A stretch of DNA of 64,000 bases from the IMG/VR virus record IMGVR_UViG_3300045049_000270. One strand, written 5' to 3'. Each line of letters opens with the position of its first letter. Within the stretch, counting starts at the first letter, position 1. Under the pieces are notes generated by a model. That model saw nothing but the letters and a program-made list of their open reading frames with translations, made no database searches and had not been told where the DNA came from. Source of the stretch: a virus (taxonomy: Duplodnaviria > Heunggongvirae > Uroviricota > Caudoviricetes). The translations under genes and the position numbers were made by a program. This document shows positions 24,039 to 36,473 of the stretch, in pieces.

Positions 24039-24188
24039 ATGCAAACTTCGTTTAACTTTTATCGACCAGAGCAGCAGCAAGGACATTGCTTGTCCATGCC
24101 CGCAGCAACATGGCTCGGTAATGGTAATCGCGAAGTGAAAAGCATTAGTCTGTCAGATAGTAAGGGGTGCCAAGGGGGTAGCGCATAA
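24039..24188 (+). CDS. leader peptide (49 aa, contains all 20 amino acids)
   Basis: GAGG SD; MQTSFNFYRPEQQQGHCLSMPAATWLGNGNREVKSISLSDSKGCQGGSA*. Confidence 0.7.
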   Translation: MQTSFNFYRPEQQQGHCLSMPAATWLGNGNREVKSISLSDSKGCQGGSA

Positions 24189-24251
24189 TAAGCGCAACCC
24201 TTAAATTACAAGGCACCCCGGTAAACGAAAGTTTCCGGGGTTTCGTGTTTT
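24164..24251 (+). terminator. attenuator: antiterminator 24164-71/24212-19 versus terminator 24216-40 plus U-rich tail
   Basis: GGGGTGCC/GGCACCCC overlaps the 5' arm of CCCCGG-T-AAAC-GAAA-GTTT-CCGGGG-TTTCGTGTTTT. Confidence 0.8.
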
Positions 24252-25050: not shown

Positions 25051-25202
25051 TTTGCTTTAATCATCCGCACTGCGTTGGTTTTTGACCGATACGCAGAAGA
25101 AGACTGCTACAAGCAGGGTAAATCCAGTGTGTGCCTGTTGAATGCGCCTAAATGTTCGAGGATAAAAAGGTGGTTCGATCCCACCCGGATGAGCAAAGCA
25201 AA
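25051..25202 (+). ncRNA. tRNA-like RNA (acceptor and T arm only, non-tRNA body, extended stem)
   Basis: TCATCCG/CGGATGA with GGTGG-TTCGATC-CCACC; flanking TTTGCTTT/AAAGCAAA; no CCA. Confidence 0.55.
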
Positions 25203-25220
25203 TTGCGATAAAGTTTCAAT

Positions 25221-28780: not shown

Positions 28781-28857
28781 TGCGGAAGAGTGAAACGGTT
28801 TACATACCAGTCTCATAAGCTGGTGACAATGGGTTCGACTCCCAATTTCCGCATCCA
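28781..28857 (+). tRNA. tRNA-Met(CAT)
   Basis: CT-CAT-AA; paralog of 28110. Confidence 0.85.
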
Positions 28858-28862
28858 ATATT

Positions 28863-29133
28863 TGTCGCGGAGCAGTTAGATTCCGACGTCCGCAACCAGT
28901 AACCGAGTAGTGCTTGAACCAGTTCATGGGGTATTAACATGAACGCGTAGTTTAGCGATAGAAGCTGTCGCATTCTGCGTGGCATTACTCACCAGTTTAA
29001 ACCGACCTAGGCGACAGCTTAGAACTCGTGCTAGTCAAACATGATCTACGCTGTCATGATTAAATGTTTGTGTTCATAGCACTGTCCTCCGTGACATAGG
29101 TCGACACGGAGCTGAGTAGGAAAACCTCAGCAC
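28863..29133 (+). ncRNA. multi-pseudoknot RNA, unassigned
   Basis: 28905-13/28982-90 crosses 28962-71/29011-20; 29004-09 complementary to 29097-102. Confidence 0.65.
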
Positions 29134-29164
29134 ATTTAATTTAACTTTCTCAGGAGAGACTGTC

Positions 29165-29209
29165 ATGTCAAGTGCCAAATCTGGCAAACCTGAGGGGGTT
29201 GGGAAGTAA
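29165..29209 (+). CDS. leader peptide MSSAKSGKPEGVGK
   Basis: CAGGAG SD 8 nt upstream; three Lys codons; overlaps a switch helix. Confidence 0.6.
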   Translation: MSSAKSGKPEGVGK

Positions 29210-29257
29210 ATTCTCATACCCCCTTAGGCGAATTTGTAGTAACCCTAAGGGGGTATG
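29189..29257 (+). promoter_or_regulatory. three-segment RNA switch masking the tRNA-Lys 5' end
   Basis: B 29215-28 is the perfect 14-nt complement of C 29244-57 and an alternative partner of A 29189-205. Confidence 0.75.
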
Positions 29258-29325
29258 GTGTTAGCGGTTAGCACAGCGGACTTTTAATCCGTCAGGCTTG
29301 GGTTCGAATCCCAGTGCCCCCACCA
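29249..29325 (+). tRNA. tRNA-Lys(TTT)
   Basis: CT-TTT-AA, CCA. Confidence 0.92.
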
Positions 29326-29333
29326 ATTTCCAC

Positions 29334-29470
29334 AAGTATCATTCGATGTGGTTAACCTGATCACCCACGGTAAGTAAAAGTGCATGACGCCTACTCAGCG
29401 TTATATGTGCAAGTAGCTTCAGCATCGTGATCAACAGGTGATGTGATGGAGATCACATCGAATGATATTT
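29334..29470 (+). ncRNA. structured RNA between the two Lys tRNAs
   Basis: 17-bp stem 29334-50/29454-70 (one G.U) with nested helices. Confidence 0.5.
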
Positions 29471-29473
29471 AAT

Positions 29474-29549
29474 GGGGTCATGGTGTCAATGGTTAGCACA
29501 GCGGACTCTTAATCCGTTTGTCTCAGTTCGAATCTGAGTGGCCCTACCA
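29474..29549 (+). tRNA. tRNA-Lys(CTT)
   Basis: CT-CTT-AA, CCA. Confidence 0.92.
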
Positions 29550-30239: not shown

Positions 30240-30774
30240 ATGAAAACTTCTGAAACATGGTGGCAAGCCAGTTAAAGCAGATGAAACACTTTTGAAAGAT
30301 TGGTTGCTGAAGCAATGGCGTGGTGAAGTAACAGCCTCAAATCGCATTGTACGGTTTGCAGAGCAATATGCAAGCGATCAACATCAAGTAAAGGTGTTGA
30401 ATGCGATTGCAGCACAAGAACGCCAGCATGCTGAATGGGTTGAGCAATTGCTCCTCTCGCGTGGTATTGAAGTTGATGCAGGTCAGATTGATCAAGCAGA
30501 GCAACGTTATTGGAAAGAAACGTTGCATGGTATCACAGATTTCGAAACCGGATCAGCAGTAGCAGCGCATGCTGAAGGTATGCGACTTGAACGGATCCGT
30601 GTTATCGCAGCTGATGAGCAAGCACCTGCTGATATTCGTAGTGTGTTTGAACGTATTTTGAAGGACGAAGAATGGCATGAGCGCGCTTTTAGCGAATTGT
30701 CTAGTCCAGTAGCACTGGCAGCAACGCAAGCTAACCATGAGGCTGGTTTGCAGGCTCTAGGGCTTGTAGCATAA
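30240..30774 (+). CDS. ferritin-like di-iron protein, apparently +1 frameshifted near the N-terminus
   Basis: QERQH and DEEWH ExxH motifs; ATG 30240 frame stops at 30275, main frame open from 30271. Confidence 0.75.
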
Positions 30775-31194: not shown

Positions 31195-31911
31195 ATGCGT
31201 CGTGCATATAGAAGAAAATACCATTACATTTACAAGACAACTTGCACTGTAACTGGTAAGTATTATATCGGAATGCACTCCACAGATGATCTAGATGATG
31301 GTTATGTGGGTTCTGGTAAGCGCTTGGGTTATTCAATTCGCAAATATGGTAAAGAAAACCATAAATGTGAAATTATAGAGCATTTACCAGATCGCGAAAG
31401 TTTACGTAAACGCGAAAGTGAGTTAGTATGTGAAGATAAACTAACCGACCCACTTTGCATGAACTTGAAGTTAGGTGGTGATGGTGGTTTTGATCACATT
31501 CTGCATCATGAAGACCAACGTGAATGGGCAAAAGCAGGACGAGCACAGACTACAGAAATTCTACTTGGACGTGGTATTACGCAAGCTGATTTAAGCAAAC
31601 GCGGAATTGATTCTGCAAGAAAGCAGAAAAAGAACGTTGCGTTTGATCCTGAATTACAATTGAAATACAGCTTCGCACATAACAAAGAGTTGCAGCAAGC
31701 TGGTAATTCACCAGAGGCTAGAGCAAAAGCTTCTGAATCGTTAAAGCGATATCACGAACTGCATAAACCACAGTTAGGTGATAATAATTCACAATACGGC
31801 ACTTGCTGGGTGCATTCGTTGACTGAGAAAAAGTCGATGAAAATATCCAAAGCTGACCTAGAAGCACATTTAGCGCTCGGTTGGCAAGCAGGGCGTAAGA
31901 TGAAGTTTTAA
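31195..31911 (+). mobile_element. GIY-YIG (Seg-like) homing endonuclease
   Basis: HYIYKTTC..GKYYIGMHST..GYVGSG; free-standing within the tRNA array. Confidence 0.88.
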
Positions 31912-35995: not shown

Positions 35996-36056
35996 AATAT
36001 TGTGGTTCTAACCAAGTTGCTTATAATTATAGCATCAACTTTTGAGGTTAGACCCC

Positions 36057-36473
36057 ATGAAATTTTCACACATCAAGCCAGCTGACACTGAATGGAAAGG
36101 TGATGGTCTGCGCGATTTCTTCCTGTATAAGGATCTCGGTATCAAGGACGCAACTGATGGTAAAGTCATTGCACATTTGGTGAAAGCTAACAAACCACCT
36201 GTTGAAGGTACTGGTTGGCACCGACATGTTTTAGATTTTCAGATTGTTGTAATGAACAAAGGCTGGGCCAAGTTCATGTACGGCGATCAAGTAACGCTTG
36301 TTGAAGCAGGCGATGTAGTACATCAAGTTCCTGGGCTAGTACATTATTTGTATGATTACTCGCCTGACATGGAGTACTTGGAAATTTGTTCACCAGCAGA
36401 TTTTGGTAGCATTGAAGTTGATGCACCAGAAAATGCTGTTGTTCCTTCACCAACTCCTTGGGACAACAAGTAA
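36057..36473 (+). CDS. cupin domain protein
   Basis: GTGWHRH..GWAKF..GDVVHQVPGLVH..LEICSPADF. Confidence 0.88.
   Translation: MKFSHIKPADTEWKGDGLRDFFLYKDLGIKDATDGKVIAHLVKANKPPVEGTGWHRHVLDFQIVVMNKGWAKFMYGDQVTLVEAGDVVHQVPGLVHYLYDYSPDMEYLEICSPADFGSIEVDAPENAVVPSPTPWDNK

Follow-up and report, generated by a model that had tools for sequence, protein, structure and literature searches.

How might a phage tie the production of one of its own transfer RNAs (tRNAs) to the reading of that tRNA's codons? The question is raised by a tRNA-Lys(UUU) gene in a 64,000-nucleotide (nt) stretch of the caudoviricete record IMGVR_UViG_3300045049_000270 (hereafter the window), which lies in a 523.6-kb contig from soil and rhizosphere metagenomes. 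ARAGORN called 50 tRNA genes in the window, all on one strand, and among the spacers of this array only the one leading to tRNA-Lys(UUU) holds a mini open reading frame (ORF) with AGGAG and ATG. An earlier note, made from the letters alone, had proposed that translation of this lysine-codon leader controls a hairpin that sequesters the 5′ end of the tRNA. Our analysis partly supports that interpretation. In silico there is good support for a conserved tRNA-Lys switch that is bistable and linked to an ORF, and the switch is probably a real, undescribed way to tie tRNA maturation to the reading of its own codons, because three diverged relatives keep it with different letters.

The elements on which the earlier note built are all present in the sequence, at the positions it gave. 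An ORF of 14 codons led by AGGAG carries three Lys codons (AAA at 29177-79, AAA at 29186-88 and AAG at 29204-06) and precedes the tRNA. Segment B, CATACCCCCTTAGG at 29215-28, is the exact reverse complement of segment C (14 nt, 100%, arms 15 nt apart), and an inverted-repeat pair, ARAGORN and Rfam together confirmed that C includes the whole 5′ acceptor strand: it spans five leader nucleotides, all seven nucleotides of that strand and tRNA bases 8-9. Alternatively, B pairs with segment A inside the ORF in a hairpin of 17 base pairs (bp) (-26.8 kcal/mol alone), whose 5-nt loop, GUAAA, contains the stop codon. The tRNA itself has a cloverleaf, a UUU anticodon and a CCA end, and an identical gene stands in normal context in a related genome, L001.

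The pairing of leader and tRNA far exceeds that at other tRNA genes. When leaders were matched against the 5′ ends of their own tRNAs in three related arrays (113 tRNAs), the longest Watson-Crick run was 14 nt here and 3-6 nt for the 112 others. The predicted duplex energy of the leader with the 5′ strand was -18.5 kcal/mol in the window, where the runner-up among 82 tRNAs reached -12.7 kcal/mol, and -15.3 kcal/mol in the relative L188, the best of 22 tRNAs. This complementarity was thus the top outlier in both arrays whose segment C is part of a tRNA. A candidate relay pairing in L001, between the tRNA-Lys#1 leader CUGUAGUCCAG and the tRNA 5′ end, was rejected as unexceptional (-9.7 kcal/mol, rank 5 of 82).

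We found three diverged versions of the module, all in related ~0.5-Mb soil phages: version 1 in the window, version 2 in L001 (a 523.8-kb IMG/VR genome) and L003 (a Logan contig), and version 3 in L188, which was located via a neighbouring protein, and L190, whose module is identical to that of L188. All share an upstream hairpin, an AU-rich tract, AGGAG at 7-8 nt from the ATG and an ORF of 14 codons. Two AAA codons stand in register in every version (AAA-UCN-NNN-AAA), the second ending 0-2 nt before A. The stop codon lies within the A:B loop throughout, and the three-way complementarity of A, B and C is kept in sequences that differ. UGUAGU follows the A:B hairpin at 6-12 nt on its 3′ side in each version; given this fixed distance, it may be a hairpin-stabilised RNA polymerase pause site. 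The AU-rich tract, which as TTTAATTTAA does not recur as a motif in the window, might serve as a ribosome-loading enhancer or a U-tract.

Version 3 retains this plan around a different tRNA-Lys(UUU) body, 65% identical to that of the window. Its ORF is MSSDKSGKPEGVMQ, and its segments A (CUGAGGGGGUCAUG) and B (CAUGGCCCCCUUAG) form 14 bp with the stop inside the loop CAGUAAGCA; B:C (GCCCCCUUAG:CUAAGGGGGC) amounts to 10 bp plus two leader pairs beyond a 1-nt bulge. Pairing of B with C covers tRNA positions -5 to +9 in the window and -4 to +6 in L188. The upstream hairpin of L188, CCAAG-UAGGAAAAG-CUUGG, differs from that of the window on both sides of the stem and retains the loop. In version 2 the hairpin reads GUCCGAAA...UUUCGGAC, the ORF is MKRKSSKLLGVVAD, and A, B and C are CUGGGAGUCGU, ACGACUCCCAG and UGGGAGUCGU.

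The earlier note had named compensatory changes in homologues as a check, and the three versions contain several co-ordinated ones. From the window to L188, tRNA position 6 changes from U to C and the matching base of B from A to G, while A keeps its U as a G.U pair with B. At a leader position where A has G and C has A, B has U, which pairs with both. Between versions 1 and 3 the inner A:B stem is wholly swapped (UGGGAA/UUCUCA to CAUG/CAUG), with the hairpin, the stop position and the ORF length retained. Between versions 1/3 and version 2 the core changes in all three segments together (A and C from GGGGGU to GGGAGU, B from ACCCCC to ACUCCC), and the flanking pairs shift from the 5′ side to the 3′ side. 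This co-variation was read by hand, as MAFFT misregisters B by 1-2 columns between versions because the loops and a bulge differ. On a shorter timescale, L001 and L003 are ~97% identical over the ~235-nt module, next to an upstream spacer of ~60-70% identity with insertions and deletions, and their lone ORF difference is a synonymous AAA to AAG.

The same comparison bears on a reading at the level of DNA. The word CCTRAGGGGGT is found across the 64 kb at A, B and C only, in two direct copies and one inverted, and a homing endonuclease gene lies 2 kb away (31195-31911), so that the three 11-nt words could be a protein-binding, recombination or homing site at a tRNA gene. We regard this as very improbable: the words differ completely between versions and the complementarity persists, including G.U pairs that are relevant in RNA alone, and the motif stands nowhere else in the window.

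Folding of the module predicts a chain of mutually exclusive helices, namely Shine-Dalgarno (SD) region:A, A:B, B:C and C:3′ acceptor strand. In state I the SD is free, A:B forms its hairpin and the tRNA adopts the cloverleaf; in state II B:C is formed, the tRNA 5′ strand is trapped, and A is paired with the SD region or the 3′ acceptor strand. An analogue of the SD:A pairing is also predicted in L001/L003. The two folds are nearly isoenergetic in all three versions (state I versus state II, -66.8 versus -70.3 kcal/mol in version 1, -53.5 versus -55.5 kcal/mol in version 2 and -66.6 versus -66.5 kcal/mol in version 3), in nearest-neighbour energies that leave out tRNA tertiary structure and modifications. 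The direct-path barrier between them in version 1 is 16.5-20 kcal/mol. With near-equal energies and so high a barrier, the fold reached would depend on kinetics and on helicase action, for example by the ribosome.

For the position of the ribosome, its unwinding edge was taken to lie ~11-13 nt away, counted from the first base of the codon in the P site. Counted likewise from the first base of the stop, the C-pairing part of B begins at 8-11 nt in every version; in the geometry model a ribosome positioned at the stop encloses A, and of that part of B it covers no more than the first 0-3 nt. Masked or constrained folds gave A:B with the ribosome at K5 and B:C with the ribosome at the stop. The earlier claim that run-through gives B:C fits these results, the C-pairing part of B lying outside the terminating ribosome in every version. 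Its counterpart, that a stall at AAA keeps A:B, held for the first conserved AAA, which when in the A site leaves A:B whole, and was borderline for the second, which abuts A and at which the model already frees part of B. As only a ribosome not yet on A keeps B off C, the geometry favours the polarity of the earlier note: run-through would trap the tRNA and waiting at AAA would let it fold. In a kinetic sense, both AAA codons may do no more than delay arrival on A.

From these observations we tentatively propose, at somewhat less than even odds, a translation-actuated folding switch in which a mutually exclusive helix chain gives phage tRNA-Lys negative feedback on its own production. A:B, transcribed first, would form first, making state I the kinetic default that persists unaided while the tRNA folds and is cut out. 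A ribosome translating the 14-codon leader would melt A:B and, at the stop in the loop, hold A and expose B. Exposed B could then invade the tRNA via the 5-nt CCUAA toehold, locking state II, so that mature tRNA would not be made. When charged tRNA-Lys is scarce, the ribosome would wait at AAA upstream of A, A:B would persist and the tRNA would mature, and tRNA-Lys would in this way feed back negatively on its own production. The analysis shows the anatomy with its conservation and co-variation, the near-equal energies, the barrier and the geometry; that the ORF is translated, which way the switch works and what it does to RNase P processing are inferences.

Several observations weigh against this proposal, in addition to what the energy model omits. 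A stall at the second AAA, 0-2 nt before A, already frees B in the masking model, and the two sensor codons could therefore signal oppositely. Lys enrichment in the leader is modest (3/13 codons, P=0.04 versus 6.2% Lys in the phage), and the third Lys codon, AAG at codon 14, is not conserved. In version 2, C precedes a long hairpin, or decayed tRNA-like hairpin, and not a working tRNA. A single phage clade supplies every version of the module, and none of the eight cultured phages with tRNA-Lys that we inspected has a Lys mini-ORF or strong sequestration.

The second AAA occupies the usual place of a regulatory codon in all versions, as would be expected of the same switch with trp-like polarity or another output, in which a stall at the AAA abutting A masks A and B:C forms under Lys-tRNA shortage. 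Masking to A-site+9 at the second AAA does yield B:C. The output would then be exposure of an RNase E/RNase III site or release of a downstream precursor, not tRNA trapping, and in L001/L003 B:C frees UGAUUCU, which is otherwise C-paired in an extended 20-bp hairpin. This alternative appears unlikely to us for three reasons. A terminating ribosome leaves the C-pairing part of B uncovered, so sufficiency gives B:C too and no differential signal remains; in the window and in L188 the sole tRNA-Lys(UUU) loses its acceptor stem when B:C forms, so that shortage would cut supply; and A lacks a Lys codon other than the non-conserved codon 14.

What conservation and co-variation demonstrate is selection on the helices; they do not demonstrate it for translation. 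The module could be a conserved RNA element that does not sense lysine, its helices directing how the tRNA-Lys precursor folds, is processed or is kept stable, for example by guiding co-transcriptional folding or as a nuclease site, beside an ORF that is untranslated or incidental. The weak Lys enrichment and a peptide sequence that is not conserved would suit such an element, and extended flanking stems occur on other tRNA-like genes of the array. What makes us doubt it, to about the same degree as the trp-like polarity, is how much of the translational apparatus is retained: a strong AGGAG at 7-8 nt from the ATG in every version, a 14-codon length and a stop in the loop that survive rebuilding of the inner stem, two AAA codons in register with only a synonymous change between L001 and L003, and an SD complementary to A in both sequence families.

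Version 2 also carries traces of how the module may have come about. Downstream of C the order is a long hairpin, tRNA-Lys#1 and tRNA-Lys#2, the last of which carries the tRNA body of the window, and a pseudo-acceptor pairing, GGAGUC:GAUUCU, competes with B:C. The A..B region of L001/L003, GGGAGUC-GU-AGC...GUUCGA-C-GACUCCC-A, has GUUCGA, which resembles a T-loop, and an acceptor stem of 7 bp without mismatch (GGGAGUC/GACUCCC). A second decayed copy (GGGAGUCGUAAGC...) starts at C, where it follows the same UGUAGUC leader as does the real tRNA, and the similarity of A and C extends a few nucleotides past the part that pairs with B. Because A..B of version 2 reads as a collapsed tRNA and C starts a decayed copy, the module probably arose from tandem tRNA copies.

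Were the module only a relic, with A..B a collapsed tandem copy of the neighbouring tRNA, B:C a product of the shared acceptor stem and no function at present, these same traces would be expected. That is quite improbable, however, and more so than either functional alternative. Paralogy accounts for 7 bp, not for 14, nor for the five leader nucleotides. A relic would not track a swapped tRNA body, as in L188, where B changed and A did not and both pairings were kept; nor would it hold ~97% identity between L001 and L003 amid diverging flanks, or preserve an ORF of constant length together with its SD and with its stop in the loop.

Two side observations concern the tRNA-Lys genes of version 2. 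L001:3101-3258 and L003:20534-20691 hold the same two tRNA-Lys bodies with swapped anticodons (CUU then UUU in L001, UUU then CUU in L003), a single-base anticodon switching on conserved bodies. The body of tRNA-Lys#1 (L001:3101-3175) is matched exactly over 32 nt in >120 soil metagenome contigs, nearly all of which are lone bacterial tRNA-Lys(CUU) genes, and this phage tRNA therefore looks host-derived.

The features of the module in the window are collected in Table 1.

Table 1. Features of the tRNA-Lys(UUU) leader module, with positions in the 64,000-nt window.
Feature	Position	Strand	Basis or remark
Upstream hairpin GCUGAG-UAGGAAAAC-CUCAGC	29111..29131	+	Kept in L188 and L001/L003; not called as terminator
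AU-rich tract ACAUUUAAUUUAACUUUCUC preceding the SD	29132..29151	+	Near-identical across versions
Segment S UUCUCAGG, overlapping the SD, complementary to the 5′ part of A	29146..29153	+	Pairs with A 29189-96 in minimum-free-energy folds whenever B:C forms
Shine-Dalgarno AGGAG, 8 nt 5′ of ATG	29152..29156	+	Sequence
Leader ORF MSSAKSGKPEGVGK, 14 codons + stop	29165..29209	+	ATG 29165, TAA 29207-09
Segment A, 5′ arm of A:B, within the ORF, near-copy of C	29189..29205	+	Folding, motif search
Segment B, partner of A (29211-28) or C (29215-28)	29211..29228	+	Folding, inverted-repeat pair
Linker with UGUAGU at 29235-40	29229..29243	+	UGUAGU conserved
Segment C, 5-nt leader CCUAA + tRNA bases 1-9	29244..29257	+	Sequence
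tRNA-Lys(UUU), encoded CCA	29249..29325	+	ARAGORN; Rfam 60.2 bits
3′ acceptor strand, fourth partner in the helix chain	29315-21	+	Folding

The earlier note had further held that the switch acts on folding rather than on termination, and the module indeed has no terminator. In none of the versions does a U-tract come after A:B, B:C or the tRNA, a terminator scan of 29150-29330 was empty, and no sigma-70 promoter was called at the leader. The output therefore has to be RNA folding or processing, and the module is not classical attenuation. It has the short SD-led ORF with cognate codons of a trp-type attenuator (AGGAG, ATG, 14 codons and two conserved AAA, in a predicted ORF) and overlapping helices equivalent to 1:2, 2:3 and 3:4, in the form of A:B, B:C and C:3′ acceptor strand. 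Its 3:4 helix is not an intrinsic terminator, and a ribosome at the stop does not mask its segment 2. As in an RNase P-gated pre-tRNA, the 5′ leader and cleavage site would be concealed by an alternative helix, here B:C. A cmscan search at E up to 10 for T-box and L-box elements in 28850-29480 of the window and 2740-3420 of L001 returned only tRNA and chance matches, and Rfam at its gathering threshold gave tRNAs only. We file the module as a new variant of ribosome-mediated attenuation acting on tRNA folding, one that is attenuator-like and lacks the terminator.

Outside the three versions, searches returned little that resembles the module. Within version 1, a strain variant from other runs has a sole module change, 29175 C>A, which turns Ala4 into Asp (A4D). 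In a sediment contig of 181 nt, the 3′ end of B and a variant linker lead to C, beyond which the DNA is unrelated. IMG/VR pattern scans with the tRNA and the spacer matched L001 only. One metagenome scan gave 0 matches; a second gave >120, almost all lone bacterial tRNA-Lys(CUU) genes, in which blastn found no leader homologue. Matches to phage records by megablast and blastn were restricted to tRNA bodies. Three distant relatives recognised by a 342-aa protein (G002, G003 and G005) are without a tRNA-Lys leader. Use of the cupin gene as an anchor led to other phages without tRNA-Lys; with the rubrerythrin-like gene as an anchor no viral locus was found, its relatives elsewhere lying in ordinary protein-coding contexts. 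Pfam and PHROG scans of the neighbouring ORFs revealed nothing bearing on tRNA repair or nucleases.

A broader reading would have tRNA-Lys(UUU) released only when AAA decoding falters, for instance under PrrC-, PARIS- or retron-type attack, with the design having arisen repeatedly in unrelated phages. We consider this doubtful, and less probable than the feedback switch proposed above.

The surroundings of the module contain further conserved elements. The ~270-nt non-coding stretch 5′ of the leader (28863-29133), a putative multi-helix RNA, is recognisably conserved at L188:16570-16700, ahead of which L188 has an extra inserted 81-codon gene. Just 3′ of the Lys/Trp tRNAs lies the rubrerythrin-like gene (30292-30774 in the window, L188:17033-17638), 75% identical between both phages. 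Between tRNA-Lys(UUU) and tRNA-Lys(CUU), a ~135-nt structured RNA (29335-29471; L001:3268-3406) is 95% identical in the window and L001, with a long closing stem and two compensatory pairs; it has no Rfam match and is absent from L003 and L188. A small frame, MVRSHPDEQSKL.., at 25170-25211 (L001:978-1025) is conserved 5′ of a tRNA-Asp pair and is probably inside a conserved RNA. The cupin gene (36042-36473), within the tRNA array, is ~75% identical to Beijerinckia and Methylovirgula proteins, a similarity that hints at an alphaproteobacterial host; the same gene stands beside tRNAs in other, T4-like phage contigs.

A second leader ORF stands at the head of the same array (24096-24250). It has 30 codons and is followed by the terminator CCCCGG..CCGGGG + UUUCGUGUUUU (TTTCGTGTTTT), and GGGGTGCC within the ORF is complementary to GGCACCCC. 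Both leaders place a small ORF before tRNA genes. The array-head attenuator has an intrinsic terminator and gates many tRNAs, whereas a terminator is lacking in the Lys leader, whose target would be the fold of a single, cognate tRNA.

The expression level of tRNA genes is commonly ascribed to the promoter and bulk processing, and whether phage tRNAs help with codon usage or counter defences that cleave tRNAs has long been debated. A designed counterpart of the module is a synthetic RNase P riboswitch, in which an alternative hairpin sequesters or exposes a pre-tRNA's cleavage site and 5′ leader and so controls tRNA maturation, and which shows that RNase P can be blocked in this way (Ender et al. 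2021, PMC7897497). That riboswitch is designed, relies on a theophylline aptamer and sequesters the leader only (PMC7897497), whereas the phage module is natural, would be driven by the ribosome and includes the acceptor strand. The riboswitch was the only precedent found; full-text literature searches brought up no natural case of tRNA folding or maturation under the control of a leader peptide.

Known regulators resemble the module in part. T-box and lysine (L-box) riboswitches share its purpose, lysine and tRNA-charging homeostasis through cis RNA, but the phage module has no Rfam match, lacks the architecture of a specifier or an aptamer, and is centred on an ORF. Translational attenuation at ermC, cat and cmlA depends on a drug-induced stall on a leader ORF, and the hidden element is a Shine-Dalgarno sequence. 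There, too, a leader ribosome rearranges hairpins that hide or expose a downstream RNA element without transcription termination; in the phage, Lys decoding would take the place of the drug, and what is hidden is the tRNA 5′ acceptor strand.

A further likeness is to the leader-peptide attenuators trpL, hisL, pheL, thrL and pheM (before pheST), which likewise have a short SD-led ORF with codons for the amino acid of the product and overlapping alternative helices chosen by ribosome position. The trpL leader, too, is 14 codons long. In the trp system a terminating ribosome masks segment 2; in the phage module segment 2 (B) lies outside the ribosome at the stop, and the polarity is probably inverted. 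The phage sensor codons precede segment 1 instead of lying inside it, no U-tract terminator is present, and the product is a tRNA whose own acceptor stem forms the last helix. If the proposal is true, phage tRNAs would come under demand-driven control, a codon-specific sensor of ~110 nt would be available as a compact and portable part, and an attenuator-like chain would be shown to be able to end in the acceptor stem of a tRNA.
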